Source: Crocosphaera subtropica ATCC 51142
Lineage (GTDB): Bacteria; Cyanobacteriota; Cyanobacteriia; Cyanobacteriales; Microcystaceae
DNA length: 32,000 nt
Direction of reading: 5' to 3'
Assembly (NCBI RefSeq): GCF_000017845.1
Contig: NC_010546.1
Span: 2,070,001 to 2,102,000, forward strand
A model generated the notes under the pieces. The model had not been told where the DNA came from and ran no database searches. It saw only the letters and a list, made by a program, of their open reading frames with translations. Position numbers and translations under genes: made by a program. Positions 21,917 to 29,630 of this stretch are shown piece by piece. Positions within the stretch are counted from its first letter, which is position 1. The number at the start of each line of letters is the position of its first letter.

Positions 21917-22160
21917 AAATAGATTGTTCAAGGAGTGATCTGCTATGAGTTAATTTAATTTATATTAATTACAGAACATAAATAACAAATATTATAATAC
22001 CTTAACTTTTCTAGTTTAGGATACAACTGTTAAAATTATCATGATATTGGCCAAGTAATTATTATCTAAAATCAATTATGTCATCACATCTTTAAATTCA
22101 GTGATTGATAAAACTCATTCTAGGCTAAAATCAAAGGAGTCCTATTAGTTGAACATCATT

Positions 22161-22529
22161 ATGAAAGACTTACCCCCTCTTAACACTGACACCATTAATG
22201 CCATTCTCAATGAAGAAATTGATGATGAAACAGTGATGCAAATGGTGTGGTATTATTTGGGATATCGTTATGATGAAAACAGTAAAACCTGGGATAGTTC
22301 CGAGGTAGAAGCATCCTGGAAAGAAGTCTATCCCGAACCGCCAAACTTTATTGAAAATCGTCCTCCTACCGTAAAATTGACCCGTTCTATTCCGAAAGAA
22401 AATAAACAGTTATTGAAAGAAAAATTAGGCTTTAAAGGCTATAAATTAGGCACTTTTGACCCTAGGGATACCCGTCGTGCAACTATGGCTAATTGGTTAT
22501 TAAGTTATTTAATGATACACTCATCTTAA
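22161..22529 (+). CDS. DUF1823 family protein (conserved cyanobacterial/plastid-lineage hypothetical)
   Basis: About 122 aa. The sequence LPPLNTDTINAILNEEIDDETVMQMVWYYLGYRYD...TRRATMANWL matches my recollection of DUF1823. The track start 22149 is TTG and the first ATG is at 22161; either start is possible. Confidence 0.6.
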   Translation: MKDLPPLNTDTINAILNEEIDDETVMQMVWYYLGYRYDENSKTWDSSEVEASWKEVYPEPPNFIENRPPTVKLTRSIPKENKQLLKEKLGFKGYKLGTFDPRDTRRATMANWLLSYLMIHSS

Positions 22530-24289: not shown

Positions 24290-24307
24290 ATCGAAAACTG
24301 ACTTGTT

Positions 24308-24386
24308 TGGGCCCCAAGGGAGACGAGCGACCCCGGTCGGGTTCCCCGACATAGGGAACGCACGAGGAGCGCCGAAGCAGGGGAGA
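24308..24386. other. isolated GC-rich island (~70% G+C) in the sigma-DUF1822 spacer; possible structured RNA or regulatory element
   Basis: Hand count gives 55 G/C in 77 nt (24309-24385), against an AT-rich background. Two mutually exclusive hairpins are possible: GTCGG/CCGAC (24336-24340 / 24346-24350) or GTTCCC/GGGAAC (24341-24346 / 24354-24359). No convincing ORF. Confidence 0.5.
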
Positions 24387-24604
24387 TTATTTTGAACTAT
24401 TTTAGAGAAAATAAAGAGTTTAAACGCCATAAAATCCTAAAAAACAACTATACTCACTAATTTATTCTTGTTTCCCCTACTTTCTTTCTCCCATTCTCTA
24501 TTATCCCTGCTCCCCCACAATCTTAACTAGGATCTTGATGATCTACTTATTATGGCTCAACCCCTTCTTCTTCTACTTAACCACTGCTTATTAGGGAATA
24601 TCCC

Positions 24605-25756
24605 ATGACTTTCTTATTTGCTCAACCTAACCAACTTTGGCTTGAACTATCAGAGACTAACCTCTCCCAAGCTTGGCAACAAAGCCATATTTGTTCGAGT
24701 GCTACCACAAGATGGCGAGCCTATCTCAATAGACTAAGCTTAACTTGTTTTCTTTCCTATGTTCAAGAAGAATGGTCCTATAGGATGACAAGTTGGCCAG
24801 AAGACCCTTTGACCAACTTGTGGGAATTGGTTGAGGGTTCAACCCTTATTTTAGGGAATAAACGCATTGTCCTCTTGCCAACGGAAGCAATGGATGAGGA
24901 TGAACTACGGGTTCCTCAAGAATGGATTGATATTCCTGAATGGGTGGCTGATTATTATCTCGCTGCTCAAGTTAATTTAGATGAGCAATGGTTAAACATT
25001 TGGGGTTACACGACCCATCAAAAATTAAAAGAGATAGGACACTATAATAGTAGCGATCGCACTTACAGCCTAGAGAAACCATTTTTATTTCAAGACATCA
25101 ACGCCTTTTGGGTATCCCAAGAACTGGCTTTAGAAGAAGTCACTCAAGGGGAGATTCTTCCCTTAACCCCTTTATCTTCAGTACAAGCTGAAAATTTAAT
25201 TGAGCGTTTAGGTAATGCTGAATTAAAAGAACCCCGTCTCGCTGTTCCCTTCACCCTTTGGGGTTCACTCCTTGCTAATTCCAGTTGGCGACAACAATTG
25301 TCTCAACATCGTCAAGGGAATACTCAACCTAATGTCTTGGTTAACTTAAGCAGTTGGTTCGATAATCTCTTTGAAAGCTCTTGGCAAGCTCCAGAAACCT
25401 TAAATTTAGCCTTTAGTAGCCGACGCAATACCACAGCCAACACTCAGACCATTCAACGAGCTAATTTAATTACCCTGGGTAGAGAACAAGTTATTTTACT
25501 GGTCGAACTCACCCCCGAAGAGGATGGTAGAATCGCTATCAGTCTTCAACTCTTTCCCCCGTCCAACCGTCGTTATTTACCAGAAATGATACAACTGACC
25601 TTGTTATCAGAAACGGGGGAGGTTTTGCGATCGGTTCAATCTCGCACTCAAGATAATGCCATCAGAATTCCTCGGTTTAAGTGTGCCACAGGATTTCGTT
25701 TTCGTCTTCAGATCACACTCAATGAGCATTGCATCACAGAGGATTTTATTGTCTAA
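24605..25756 (+). CDS. DUF1822 family protein (cyanobacteria-restricted, function unknown)
   Basis: 383 aa with no TM and about 15 Trp. The N-terminal pattern ...AWQQS...RWRAYLNRLSLTCFLSYVQEEW and the beta-rich C-terminus (VILLVELTPEEDGRIAISLQLFP...LPEMIQLTLLSETGEVL...GFRFRLQITLNEHCITEDF) match my recollection of DUF1822. The stop abuts the next ATG. Confidence 0.7.
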   Translation: MTFLFAQPNQLWLELSETNLSQAWQQSHICSSATTRWRAYLNRLSLTCFLSYVQEEWSYRMTSWPEDPLTNLWELVEGSTLILGNKRIVLLPTEAMDEDELRVPQEWIDIPEWVADYYLAAQVNLDEQWLNIWGYTTHQKLKEIGHYNSSDRTYSLEKPFLFQDINAFWVSQELALEEVTQGEILPLTPLSSVQAENLIERLGNAELKEPRLAVPFTLWGSLLANSSWRQQLSQHRQGNTQPNVLVNLSSWFDNLFESSWQAPETLNLAFSSRRNTTANTQTIQRANLITLGREQVILLVELTPEEDGRIAISLQLFPPSNRRYLPEMIQLTLLSETGEVLRSVQSRTQDNAIRIPRFKCATGFRFRLQITLNEHCITEDFIV

Positions 25757-28129
25757 ATGAGTAAACTGGTTGTTTTAAAATTGGGCAAAGGAAATTGGCA
25801 ACAGGGATTTTCTAATGTCAATGTCCAAGTTTCAGAACCGAATCGTCCCATGTCTTTGCAACTAAGTGGGAGTTTACCCTCTGACCTAGAATTATGGGAC
25901 CAGTATCAACAATGGCGGAATCTTTACGAAGCCCTTTCTGTGAATTTGAGATTGCGTCGTTATCGTAGTTCGATGCAGCCCATGATTGAATTTGATAGCG
26001 AAGAAGTTACCCATATTTCCGATGGAGAATTTCTCTACCTGTGCGATCAATTAGAACAACAATTAAATCGGTGGTTAAGCACAGAATCCTTTAGTCGCAT
26101 TGAACGTCAACTACGCAGTCATCTCAATGTTGGCGATGAAATTCGCTTGATTATCGAAACCGAAAATCAGGAACTGCGACGGTTTCCTTGGCATTTGTGG
26201 CATTTTTTTGAAGATTATCCTTTCGTTGAAGTCGCTTTAAGTCCGGCTGAATATGGACAGGTTTCGACAGCTTCAGTGCAACGAACTGGAAAGGTGAGAG
26301 TTTTAGCCATTTTAGGTAACAGTCAAGGAATTGATGTTGAAAAGGATCGTACTATCCTTCAACAATTACCCGATGGTGAGGTAATTTTTCTAGTTGAACC
26401 TCAACGTCAAGACTTGGATCGTTGGTTGTGGGATGAACAAGGATGGGACATTTTATTTTTTGCAGGTCACAGTTTTAGTCAATCCCAAGGAATGACCGGA
26501 CAGTTAGAAATTAATCCCCAAGAGTCTCTTTCTTTATCACAACTACGCAATGCTTTAAAAACAGCCATTCGTCATGGATTAAAACTGGCTATTTTCAACT
26601 CCTGTGACGGTTTAGGATTAGCCCAACAATTAGCCGATTTACATATTCCCCAAACTATCGTTATGCGGGAATCCGTTCCTGATGTGGTTGCTCAGGAGTT
26701 TCTGACCCATTTTTTGAGAGCTTTTTCGGGGGGAAAATCTTTTTATTGTTCCGTTCGAGAAGCTAGGGAACGGTTACAAGGACTAGAAGGGTTATTTCCT
26801 TGTGCGAGTTGGTTACCTGTAATTTGTCAAAATCCTGTCGAAACACCACCAAATTGGCAGAAATTACGGGATAAACAAGCAAATTCATCGGTGATTTCTC
26901 CTTCTCGACCAAAAGTAAGAGGGATTGTCCTAGCTAGTTTAGCAGTCACTATAGTAACGATGGGGTTTCGTTGGTTGGGATGGTTGCAAAGTTGGGAACT
27001 GAAAGCCTTTGATTATTTCATGGTACATCGTCCCCAACAAGAAGCTGATAACCGTTTATTAATTATTGGAGCCGATGAGGAGGATCTGAATCGCTATGGT
27101 TATCCCCTTTCCGATGAGGTAATCGATAAACTCCTGACTCAATTGCAATCCTATCAGCCTTCGGTCATCGGTATGGATATTTTTCGAGATCAACCTGTAT
27201 TGACTTCTAATGTGGCTAAATCTTCTCCCTTGTCTCAAACCTTAGCCCAAAGTCAGAATGTGGTTGCCATTTGTACTTTTGGAGAAAGTTTAGCTGCTAG
27301 TGTTGCTCCCCCTGAATCCATTTCCCCTCAACAAGTAGGCTTTGTTAATCTATACGACGATCGCCAGCCAACTCAGGGAGGAGATGATATGGTTCGTCGT
27401 TATCTTCTTTCCCGTAGTGCCAATCCTTTAGAAGCAATGTCCCGTTGCACAACTCCCTATTCTTTTGCTTGGCAACTGGCTTATCGTTATCTTCAGAACC
27501 AAGATATTTCCGTCATATCTCAAGGGGAAGACTGGCGGTTTGGTAAGGTATTGGTTCAACGTTTAAAAAACCGCAGTGCAGGTTATCAAACCTTGGACGA
27601 ACGGGGAAATCAATTACTGATTAACTATAAAAATACACCGCAAATTGCTCAACATATAACCGTTCGAGATATTTTAGATAATAACAAACATCTCAATCCT
27701 GCTTGGATTAAAGATCGAGTCGTATTAATTGGCATTACGGCTCCTAGTATTCCTGATAGGCATGATACTCCTTATGGCGAAATTCGAGGCATCAATATTC
27801 ATGCCCATGTCGTTAGTCAGTTATTGAGCGCAGCAGAAGGCAACAATTCCACTTTATTTTGGTGGTTACCTCAGTGGGGAGATTTTCTGTTAACGTTATT
27901 TTGGTCATTAATAGGAGGATTGATTGTTTATCTTCACCAACCGCTTTATCGAGTCGGTTTTGTTGTGTTTTCTTTGTTATTTATGTCGGGAATTTATTGG
28001 TTTATTTTTCTTCAACAGGGATGGCTTCCTCTCATTCCGTCCGCACTGGCTTTTTTAGGGTCAGTTGGAATAATTGTTTTGATAAAAAATTTAAAAATTG
28101 GCAAATATAACAGTATAAAAAAAGGTTAG
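25757..28129 (+). CDS. CHAT (caspase-like protease) domain fused to CHASE2 sensor, membrane protein
   Basis: CHAT core aa ~178-360 with VRVLAILGN, FFAGHS (H238, nt 26468-26470) and IFNSCDG (C283, nt 26603-26605). TM1 spans aa ~388-410. CHASE2 hallmarks are present (WELKAFDYF...LLIIGADEEDLNRYGYPLSDEV...IGMDIFRDQP, VGFVNLYDD...MVRRYLL, DRVVLIGITAPSIPDRHDTPYGEIRGINIHAHVVSQLL). Three C-terminal TM helices span aa ~707-776. Confidence 0.85.
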   Translation: MSKLVVLKLGKGNWQQGFSNVNVQVSEPNRPMSLQLSGSLPSDLELWDQYQQWRNLYEALSVNLRLRRYRSSMQPMIEFDSEEVTHISDGEFLYLCDQLEQQLNRWLSTESFSRIERQLRSHLNVGDEIRLIIETENQELRRFPWHLWHFFEDYPFVEVALSPAEYGQVSTASVQRTGKVRVLAILGNSQGIDVEKDRTILQQLPDGEVIFLVEPQRQDLDRWLWDEQGWDILFFAGHSFSQSQGMTGQLEINPQESLSLSQLRNALKTAIRHGLKLAIFNSCDGLGLAQQLADLHIPQTIVMRESVPDVVAQEFLTHFLRAFSGGKSFYCSVREARERLQGLEGLFPCASWLPVICQNPVETPPNWQKLRDKQANSSVISPSRPKVRGIVLASLAVTIVTMGFRWLGWLQSWELKAFDYFMVHRPQQEADNRLLIIGADEEDLNRYGYPLSDEVIDKLLTQLQSYQPSVIGMDIFRDQPVLTSNVAKSSPLSQTLAQSQNVVAICTFGESLAASVAPPESISPQQVGFVNLYDDRQPTQGGDDMVRRYLLSRSANPLEAMSRCTTPYSFAWQLAYRYLQNQDISVISQGEDWRFGKVLVQRLKNRSAGYQTLDERGNQLLINYKNTPQIAQHITVRDILDNNKHLNPAWIKDRVVLIGITAPSIPDRHDTPYGEIRGINIHAHVVSQLLSAAEGNNSTLFWWLPQWGDFLLTLFWSLIGGLIVYLHQPLYRVGFVVFSLLFMSGIYWFIFLQQGWLPLIPSALAFLGSVGIIVLIKNLKIGKYNSIKKG

Positions 28130-28132
28130 CAT

Positions 28133-28187
28133 AACCTGAGTTCGGGGTTCGGAGTTCGGATTTTTTAACGAGGGAATCAGAGTTTGA
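28133..28187 (+). repeat. MITE-like repeat element, copy C (short, right end degenerate)
   Basis: AACCTGAGTTCG left end, heptamers GAGTTCG GGGTTCG GAGTTCG (28138-28158), a T6 run, and the core AACGAGGGAATCAGAGTTTGA (28167-28187). It fills the 47-nt gap between two convergent stop codons and contains the coaBC stop. Confidence 0.75.
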
Positions 28188-29415
28188 TATTTCTTCTCCT
28201 CAACTTTTCCAGGTTAACAAAGTCTAATAATTGATGAGCCAGTTCTAATTTAGAACAAGATTTTATGGGTTGTTGTTGTCCGTCAGCCTTAATAAAAATA
28301 GCTTGATTTGTATCAGTCCCAAACCCTGAGTCTGGCTTATCGATAGGGTTAGCAACAATTAAATCTAACTTTTTTCTTTTTAATTTATCCAAAGCTGGAT
28401 TAATAATATCTCCTGTTTGTGCTGCAAATCCGATTAAGATTTGATCAGCTTTTTTTAAGCTTCCCAACTTAGCTAAAATATCAGTAACCGATTCTAACTT
28501 TAAGTCAGTGGGTAGCTCTTTTTTGGGCAATTTATGATTAGTGTAATAAGCCGGTTTAACATCCGCTACGGCCGCAGACATAATAATTATCTCAGACTCA
28601 ACGAAATGACTCATCATCACGGCTTCCATTTGGTCGGCACTAACCACAGAAATAAGTTGATAATTGGGGGAGATGGGAAGTAATTCTGGTGCAATAGGGC
28701 CATGAACTAAGGTGACAATCCCTCCACGATCGCTGGCTGCTTGAGCGAGGGCTAAGGCCATTTTTCCCGTGGAAGGATTCCCTAAAAATCTCACCGGATC
28801 AAGATGTTCTCTCGTTCCTCCGCCACTAATTAAAATTCGTTTACCGTTAAAGTCTTGTTGTCCTTGGGTGTGGGCTAAAGACTGTAATTGAGTGATAATT
28901 TCTGCTGGTTCAGCCATACGTCCCGATCCCACCCGATCGCAAGCCAATAACCCAGAACCTGGACCAATGCTATGATAACGACTGTTTTGTGTTAACTGCT
29001 GCCAGTTGCGTCGTATCACAGGTTGCTCCCACATTTCTGTATTCATAGCCGGGGCTAATAAAATAGGACAACGAGAGGCCAAAACTGTATTGGTCAGTAA
29101 GTTATCGGCTAATCCATGAGTTAACTTACCCAAGGTATTAGCGGTTAAAGGTGCAATGAGAAATAAATCAGCCTCTTCTCCTAGGGCAATATGCAAAGGA
29201 CGGGAATGGTTAGCTTGCCAAAAATCTGCATCGGTATAGGCTTGATGACGACTGAGGGTGGAAACCGTTAAGGGTGTGATAAATTGTTGGCCAGTTTCTG
29301 TCAGGATGACACGCACCTTTGCTCCGGCTTGAAATAAAGAAGAAATAACCTCACAGACTTTATAAGCAGCAATACCGCCACCAATGCCTATGAGGACAGA
29401 TTTAGATTTAAGCAT
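28177..29415 (-). CDS. coaBC: bifunctional phosphopantothenoylcysteine decarboxylase / phosphopantothenate-cysteine ligase
   Basis: N-terminal flavoprotein domain ([21 protein letters not shown]) and C-terminal CoaB domain ([33 protein letters not shown]). I start it at ATG 29415 ([10 protein letters not shown]...), 2 nt after the upstream gene's stop. The track extension to 29511 overlaps that gene. Confidence 0.93.
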
Positions 29416-29417
29416 GA

Positions 29418-29630
29418 TTATGCTTCGTCGTAGGCTTCGATATCGAGCAAGTATAGATAAGGTTCTGCGAGGTCTTGACGTTGGAAGGCGATCGCCCGTA
29501 ATGTATGCCAATCTTTAAGAGCTTCAAAAGGATTGGTATAATCATCTTGTTCCAGTCGCCCTGCAAGATCCGCCACATCTTGCTCGGTTAACGCAGAAAT
29601 ATCTTGCCCTGTCAAACTTAAGGTTGTCAT
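29418..29630 (-). CDS. small conserved cyanobacterial hypothetical protein (possibly DUF2555), coupled to coaBC
   Basis: The ATG at 29630 ([19 protein letters not shown]...) is preceded by GGAGG with a 7-nt spacer, so the longer track ORF start at 29696 is unlikely. 70 aa and acidic. The family name is from memory only. Confidence 0.7.

Follow-up and report, generated by a model that had tools for sequence, protein, structure and literature searches.

We analysed a 32,000-nucleotide (nt) stretch of the Crocosphaera subtropica ATCC 51142 chromosome (NC_010546.1, positions 2,070,001 to 2,102,000), referred to here as the window and numbered from its first letter. We propose that the open reading frame (ORF) at 25757-28129 on the + strand encodes a combined sensor and protease that belongs to a signalling cassette conserved among cyanobacteria and that may gate a sigma factor. 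The 790-amino-acid (aa) product carries a CHAT protease domain and a CHASE2 sensor domain, and its gene stands downstream of genes for a sigma factor and a DUF1822 protein. These conserved operon partners are the main clue to function. We regard the general proposal as evenly poised between right and wrong; its specific version, in which the DUF1822 protein is cut at Arg273 (R273), is offered tentatively and is the more doubtful for its detail. An original prediction for this gene, made from the sequence, was sound in its anatomy, topology, catalytic dyad and suggestion of oligomerisation, but its framing of the layout and of the N-terminal head did not stand, and it missed the sigma and DUF1822 partners.

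A conserved three-gene cassette

We scanned one genome per GTDB species for relatives of the gene, and the counts of loci given below are among the matches listed. At least 591 loci encode a relative, of the 600 pattern matches listed. The best 80 loci match the query over residues 1 to ~775, all at full length, and all but one of them are labelled cyanobacteria or unclassified metagenome bins. One locus (L002, JAKVAR010000137.1) lies on a contig labelled as a Crocinitomicaceae (Bacteroidota) metagenome-assembled genome, and carries a cassette of cyanobacterial type that is 57% identical to that of the window; this is likely a case of mis-binning.

In the window, the TAA stop codon of the DUF1822 gene abuts the ATG of the CHAT-CHASE2 gene with 0 nt between them. 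Among related loci, the ORF next upstream of the CHAT-CHASE2 gene was DUF1822 in 66 of 73, and in two more DUF1822 lay one gene further away; the DUF1822 stop codon was no more than 30 nt from the start of the protease gene in 28 of 59. The sigma-factor profile TIGR02937 matched the second-upstream ORF in 45 of 69 loci, and tblastn added more sigma-type ORFs. The cassette partners are conserved and, to judge from the spacing of the genes, often translationally coupled. The sigma factor of the window contains Sigma70_r4 at residues 321-364 and an N-terminal extension of ~80 aa, and a long insert separates its regions 2 and 4. Its match to the type III-E sigma model was weak and generic (22 bits against a cut-off of 100).

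In divergent subfamilies the gene order is retained and both partner proteins are shorter, the sigma-like one measuring ~150-320 aa and the DUF1822 protein ~306-340 aa. The short DUF1822 protein of the divergent cassettes L016, L017, L019, L023, L024, L026, L055, L056 and L067 detectably retains only the C-terminal half of its counterpart in the window. Some genomes carry two or three paralogous CHAT-CHASE2 genes (L008/L051/L075 in one Rivularia genome, L014/L040, L030/L069 and L023/L052). Each of the three Rivularia loci has sigma and DUF1822 genes of its own, as do most of these paralogous loci overall, an arrangement that suggests separate signalling channels. DUF1822 cassettes are also present in Nostoc punctiforme.

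Domain order and the end of the protein

Searches against Pfam placed CHAT (PF12770) at residues 105-342 of the 790-aa protein, with 53.5 bits against a cut-off of 24, and CHASE2 (PF05226) at residues 398-722, with 215.8 bits against a cut-off of 26.3 (E 1e-63, profile positions 3-257 of 257). The predicted order of an N-terminal CHAT followed by CHASE2 was thereby confirmed. At E <= 0.01 Pfam returned these two domains only, with no match to Peptidase_C14 and no TPR domain in the 790-aa protein, and the Pfam and NCBIfam profiles detected no anti-sigma domain on the polypeptide. We also used an AlphaFold2 model of the protein, built on 111 homologues, with a mean predicted local distance difference test (pLDDT) score of 86.6.

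In canonical CHASE2 receptors a cytoplasmic output follows the last transmembrane (TM) helix. Here the chain ends in ...KNLKIGKYNSIKKG before the stop codon, leaving a 13-residue tail with no downstream room for such a domain: the gap between the stop codon and a convergent coaBC-like gene (28177-29511, - strand) is only 47 nt and holds a terminator-like hairpin. The 111 aligned homologues are 765-817 aa long and span 16-38 residues between the conserved P761 and their C-terminus, and the homologous ORFs of 74 related genomic loci are 772-849 aa long, none of them with a C-terminal output domain. In every homologue the chain stops about 0-20 residues past TM4. We considered the possibility that a frameshift or truncation hides such a domain in this genome. 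Because the gap to the convergent gene is short, the hairpin lies within it and more than 180 homologues end in the same way, we exclude both a frameshift and the loss of an output domain and regard the chance of an artefact as negligible. The earlier statement that nothing of substance follows the last helix thus agrees with the gap, the hairpin and the homologue lengths.

An intact CHAT protease

We assign H238 and C283 as the catalytic dyad of the CHAT domain, as had been predicted. The assignment rests on the Pfam match, on invariance, on position in the modelled secondary structure and on Foldseek matches. H238 (in FFAGHS) and C283 (in FNSCDG) were invariant in 28 of 28 and in 111 of 111 homologues, and their equivalents were invariant in all 150 of the 50%-cluster representatives of the N-terminal module described below; the flanking motifs G-H-S and N-S-C-x-G are conserved along with them. 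In the model, H238 comes directly after the strand 232-236 and C283 directly after the strand 277-281, which is the position of the dyad in the caspase fold.

The top Foldseek matches of the model in the PDB were all CHAT proteases (E 3.6e-9 to 2.8e-6, probability 1.0). They included separase (9hma, 3.6e-9), the Csx29/TPR-CHAT subunit of Craspase (8eey_B, 4.5e-9; also 7zoq, 8d9f and 7y85), SAVED-CHAT (8tl0) and the anti-sigma factor DdvA (8rot_A, 2.8e-6), while caspases and gingipain gave weaker matches, below the CHAT proteases. PDB sequence searches with the full-family profile, the CHAT core alone, DUF1822 and the sigma factor returned nothing usable. The alignments and the model together lead us to predict that the CHAT domain is an intact cysteine protease.

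The domain might instead be a non-catalytic scaffold, a pseudo-protease, with CHASE2 serving only to anchor or regulate a sigma/anti-sigma complex at the membrane. The CHAT active site of DdvA is incomplete, and pseudo-orthocaspases are reported to be common in cyanobacteria (PMC6426788). However, both His and Cys, together with their flanks, are invariant in all of the 28, 111 and 150 sequences, and we consider a pseudo-protease very unlikely.

Membrane topology and the CHASE2 domain

Hydropathy analysis identified four hydrophobic segments (~389-408, 708-727, 733-752 and 758-777), and the AlphaFold2 model has helices at 387-407, 706-723, 729-752 and 759-789. By both methods CHASE2 is flanked by one TM helix before it and three after it. 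Across the 111 homologues, the 20 aa before TM1 contain on average 4.0 K/R against 1.0 D/E, the ~20 aa after TM1 contain 2.1 K/R against 3.0 D/E, and the C-terminal tail contains 2.2 K/R against 0.7 D/E. There is no signal-peptide-like stretch at the N-terminus, which is modelled as a beta-strand. Two cysteines of the predicted periplasmic CHASE2 domain, C506 and C564 (codons 27272-27274 and 27446-27448), are invariant across the 111 homologues and may form a disulfide. PDB sequence searches and Foldseek found no solved structural relative of the CHASE2 domain.

The predicted topology is N-in/C-in: CHAT would lie in the cytoplasm and CHASE2 on the far side of the membrane. This fits the charge bias, the lack of a signal peptide and the invariant cysteines, and it upholds the four-helix topology of the original prediction. 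The reverse orientation, with a periplasmic CHAT and the CHASE2 part in the cytoplasm, has DdvA as a precedent for a CHAT domain working in the periplasm. We find it scarcely credible here, given that the N-terminus has no signal sequence, the positive-inside bias of the homologues favours N-in/C-in, the two cysteines are consistent with an oxidising compartment, and the sigma factor and DUF1822 partners are soluble, cytoplasmic proteins.

A constant module with an exchangeable sensor

The N-terminal head had been described as an uncharacterised region of ~175 aa. In Pfam, CHAT is matched from residue 105 onwards, which leaves an extra head of ~100 aa and places the second half of the region first described within CHAT. 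In the AlphaFold2 model, the head comprises strands 2-8, 17-27 and 30-40 (a beta-meander over 2-40), a long helix at 44-72 and a disordered segment at 73-88. Nor is the head uncharacterised. Kaur, Iyer, Burroughs & Aravind (eLife 2021, PMC8195603) described a constant module composed of an alpha+beta domain, EACC2, and a caspase, joined to a variable sensor such as CHASE2, with genes for a sigma factor of the extracytoplasmic function (ECF) type and for a DUF1822 protein as neighbours. Their supplementary tables list 'EACC2+CASPASE+CHASE2+TM+TM' beside proteins that NCBI names DUF1822. Pfam and NCBIfam hold no EACC2 model; the head fits an EACC2-type constant domain by its architecture, its neighbours and the module that it shares with nSTAND1 and WD40 proteins.

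We searched residues 1-370 against 1.84 billion cluster representatives and obtained matches in 2392 50%-clusters at E <= 1e-3 and in 1587 at E <= 1e-30. The homologue matches start at residue 1, and the head and CHAT co-occur as one unit, also with nSTAND1 and WD40. Among the best 150 of the 50%-cluster representatives, CHASE2 follows the module in 74 and other partners accompany it in 76, some of which carry the module at the C-terminus. Complete CHASE2-bearing representatives never extend more than ~30 residues beyond the last helix. Pfam scans of 58 of the 76 non-CHASE2 representatives found CHAT in every one, with partners that include nSTAND1 NTPases and WD40 propellers.

On these sequence comparisons the protease module is the fixed part and the sensor the exchangeable one, most commonly CHASE2; the protein is not a CHASE2 receptor whose output has been reversed. 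The proposal of an inverted or unusual architecture therefore did not hold, since 74 of the 150 best representatives share it and it was published in 2012 and 2021. Both the architecture and the gene neighbourhood are already known, and the family numbers hundreds and has been described computationally.

The breadth of the module bears on a further explanation, in which the protein is an effector of cell death or abortive infection: an externally triggered caspase homologue would degrade many proteins or start an orthocaspase cascade, and the sigma factor would control only the expression of the cassette. Fusions of the head and CHAT to STAND NTPases and WD40 arrays are typical of conflict systems, and the idea that CHASE2-linked orthocaspases act as death receptors has been put forward in reviews. 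Elsewhere, however, the window is ordinary chromosome, with FtsH, UvrB, EF-G, MltA, CoaBC and cyanobacterial DUFs, and the gene sits among housekeeping neighbours with no defence island. The dedicated linkage to sigma factor and DUF1822 and the several paralogous cassettes per genome also look like specific signalling channels, and we judge a death effector improbable.

The linker and signal transfer

The segment between CHAT and TM1 is flexible in the model, with pLDDT below 50 at residues 374-381. At a mean of 0.46, conservation in the linker (residues 361-388) exceeds that of just two segments, the C-terminal tail (0.12) and the TM2-TM3 loop of five residues (0.45). The linker also accepts insertions, from 50 aa in P0018 up to a whole adenylate cyclase domain of ~200 aa. 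Inserts of ~200 aa between CHAT and TM1 were present in P0070, in P0072 and in about six of the 150 module representatives (e.g. P0291, P0300, P0352, P0369 and P0271); those of P0070 and P0072 are the adenylate cyclase domain PF00211. In the cyclase-insert proteins, two cytoplasmic effectors precede the CHASE2 membrane part, and nothing follows TM4.

The original prediction had the signal running backwards through TM1 alone. Because the linker is flexible, poorly conserved and tolerant of insertions, a rigid piston or rotation relay through TM1 is unlikely. The same flexibility and tolerance of insertions lead us to propose clustering of the tethered proteases instead, for which SAVED-CHAT, activated by filament formation, is a precedent; the ligand-driven oligomerisation that had also been suggested is therefore a plausible mode of activation.

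The DUF1822 protein and a conserved loop

The AlphaFold2 model of the DUF1822 protein (mean pLDDT 83.6) consists of an alpha/beta domain (residues 1-160), a helical segment (165-237), a low-confidence loop (241-280) and a beta-sandwich (283-382). The loop contains the motif LAFSSR, for which the family consensus is LAFxFR, at the sole long stretch of the model with pLDDT below 50 (271-280). With a single exception, the DUF1822 sequences examined keep the Arg at R273, across all subfamilies and including the short DUF1822 proteins. According to the alignments and models, this loop is the only strongly conserved motif of the cassette predicted to be disordered. Kaur et al. 2021 (PMC8195603) describe DUF1822 as TPR or TRADD-N+TPRs; our model does not resemble a TPR array.

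A proposed relay and the evidence on either side

We propose that a periplasmic signal at CHASE2 would change how the tethered CHAT domains oligomerise or how close together they lie, without a rigid TM1 piston. The activated protease would then cleave the co-expressed DUF1822 protein, most plausibly after the Arg of LAFxFR (R273), and cleavage would free or activate the cognate sigma factor and produce a transcriptional response. We favour DUF1822 as the substrate because a basic residue that hardly varies and sits in an exposed loop between domains resembles the site of a clan-CD protease.

Several points weigh against this relay. Both the binding of DUF1822 to the sigma factor and the cleavage of DUF1822 are things that we purely infer, and the LAFxFR loop could equally be a docking site. 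An Arg at the P1 position is not assured, as the P1 specificities of CHAT proteases vary: separase cuts after Arg, and craspases cut after Met or Leu. A Foldseek search with the DUF1822 model gave no significant match (best E 3.8e-3 at low probability, mostly generic beta-sandwiches) and confirmed no anti-sigma, TPR or TRADD-N fold, and DUF1822 had no sequence match in the PDB. Upstream of 23 sigma genes, a k-mer search for a promoter motif in common yielded A/T-rich words only. In the literature searched, we found no experimental work on the cassette or on any member of the family.

A further point is that Kaur et al. 2021 (PMC8195603), who defined the module, favour autoproteolysis of the caspase protein itself. 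On their proposal the sensor signal would cause the caspase to cut its own chain, in cis or in trans within an oligomer, and EACC2-CHAT would leave the membrane; DUF1822 and the sigma factor would act downstream, with DUF1822 not the primary substrate. This course is compatible with the relay proposed here. The CHAT-TM1 linker is flexible and exposed in the AlphaFold2 model, and the structural match DdvA is likewise proposed to autoproteolyse in trans. On the other hand, linker residues 361-388 are poorly conserved and without a conserved motif, and the sole strongly conserved disordered motif of the cassette sits in DUF1822. We consider autoprocessing to be unlikely.

The relay through DUF1822, if true, would extend the principle of a protease-gated sigma factor, as in Craspase and CalpL, from antiviral systems to cyanobacterial envelope signalling, and would give DUF1822 a function. 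Each paralogous cassette of a cyanobacterial genome would then be a separate sensory channel. Mutants of the LAFxFR loop and of the C283/H238 dyad offer a direct test.

Comparison with known systems

In domain order, neighbours and phylum, the gene shows no essential difference from the EACC2-caspase systems (PMC8195603) and is an ordinary member of that group; the LAFxFR loop and the argument from the linker are additions of the present analysis. A Trichodesmium caspase homologue with CHASE2 was listed by Jiang 2010 (PMC2853523). Asplund-Samuelsson 2012 (PMC3501461) described this Trichodesmium erythraeum protein as an N-terminal metacaspase with a C-terminal CHASE2 flanked by 1+3 TM helices, and assigned the protease to the cytoplasm and the receptor to the exterior. 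The two proteins share the N-terminal cytoplasmic caspase fold, the 1+3 TM helices and the absence of anything thereafter. They differ in that the Trichodesmium protease is classed as metacaspase/C14, whereas ours is a CHAT domain without C14 and has in addition the EACC2 head.

The type III-E Craspase (PDB 8eey, 7zoq, 8d9f) consists of Cas7-11 and Csx29 (TPR-CHAT) and cleaves Csx30, releasing a sigma factor. It resembles the cassette in its CHAT fold, with Csx29 among the top Foldseek matches, and in the dedicated sigma factor encoded alongside. In Craspase the cleavage of a partner frees the sigma factor, whereas the cleavage of DUF1822 is only a proposal here, and the RNA-guided input of Craspase contrasts with the predicted periplasmic CHASE2 input. 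The Craspase hallmarks TPR, Cas7-11, Csx30 and Csx31 were not detected in the cassette, whose neighbours in the window are DUF1822 and the sigma factor and otherwise housekeeping genes.

DdvA of the DdvA-DdvS pair of Myxococcus xanthus (PDB 8rot; PMC11506125) is a transmembrane anti-sigma factor with TPR-CHAT that forms dimers and for which proteolysis in trans is proposed. Like our protein, it is a membrane protein that pairs a CHAT fold with ECF sigma control, and it is a structural match. In DdvA, however, CHAT is periplasmic with an incomplete site, the anti-sigma domain lies on the same chain in the cytoplasm and release proceeds via RseP, whereas here CHAT is predicted to be cytoplasmic, the dyad is intact and the sigma partner would be a separate protein. 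A membrane anti-sigma factor of the DdvA type, acting through regulated intramembrane proteolysis, was also considered and rejected on the absence of a detected anti-sigma domain and the predicted cytoplasmic location of CHAT.

In SAVED-CHAT (PDB 8tl0) and in the CalpL-CalpT-CalpS system, ligand-induced oligomerisation activates the protease, and CalpL cleaves the anti-sigma-like partner CalpT to release CalpS. Those systems are soluble and respond to cyclic oligoadenylate, and CalpL is a Lon-type protease, not a CHAT protease. The cassette would constitute a protease-released sigma switch of a third, CRISPR-independent class, the first whose input is extracytoplasmic, and would bypass classical site-1/site-2 intramembrane proteolysis; we advance this as a possibility open to considerable doubt.

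Canonical CHASE2 receptors (adenylate cyclases, GGDEF proteins such as Dgc2, and histidine kinases) have the same CHASE2 with 1+3 TM helices. Their output is C-terminal to TM4, whereas the effector is N-terminal here and in TIR-CHASE2 proteins. Ser/Thr-kinase-CHASE2 proteins, said to have been described by Zhulin and colleagues in 2003, reportedly also have an N-terminal effector. The TIR-CHASE2 arrangement appears as 'TIR+TM+CHASE2+...' in the supplementary tables of Kaur et al. 2021 (PMC8195603).

Features of the cassette and its surroundings

The positions of the cassette features are collected in Table 1.

Table 1. Positions in the window of the genes, domains and motifs of the cassette
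Feature	Position	Strand	Basis or remark
Sigma-70-family, ECF-like sigma factor, 404 aa	23075-24289	+	TIGR02937, 105.5 bits against cut-off 42.9
DUF1822 protein, 383 aa	24605-25756	+	PF08852, 309 bits; proposed sigma-binding partner and protease substrate
LAFSSR (family consensus LAFxFR), DUF1822 L268-R273	25406-25423	+	Candidate cleavage or docking motif, inter-domain loop
N-terminal alpha+beta head (EACC2-type constant domain), residues 1-104	25757-26068	+	AlphaFold2 model; fits by module co-occurrence
CHAT caspase-fold protease domain, residues 105-360	26069-26836	+	Pfam, dyad, Foldseek
His238 codon	26468-26470	+	
Cys283 codon	26603-26605	+	
Flexible K/R-rich linker to membrane, residues 361-388	26837-26920	+	pLDDT, conservation, insertions
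TM1, residues 389-408	26921-26980	+	Hydropathy; AlphaFold2 helix 387-407
Predicted extracytoplasmic CHASE2 sensor, residues 409-706	26981-27874	+	PF05226; confident alpha/beta model
TM2-TM4, residues 707-777	27875-28087	+	Hydropathy; AlphaFold2 helices
Basic cytoplasmic tail of 13 residues and stop codon	28088-28129	+	Tail conservation 0.12, short in all homologues
Terminator-like hairpin and T-run, operon end	28136-28169 (hairpin 28136-28159)	+	In the 47-nt gap

The spacer between the sigma and DUF1822 genes is 315 nt long and A/T-rich, and contains a G+C-rich stretch of ~85 nt (24305-24390, GGCCCCAAGGGAGACGAGCGACCCCGGTCGGGTTCCCCGACATAGGGAACGCACGAGGAGCGCC...) that occurs once in the window. 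This stretch folds no better than its shuffles (z = -1.7), and Rfam gave no match in the window, the stretch included. Just upstream of the cassette and on the same strand, at 22149-22529, lies a gene for a DUF1823 protein of 126 aa, of a cyanobacterial type.

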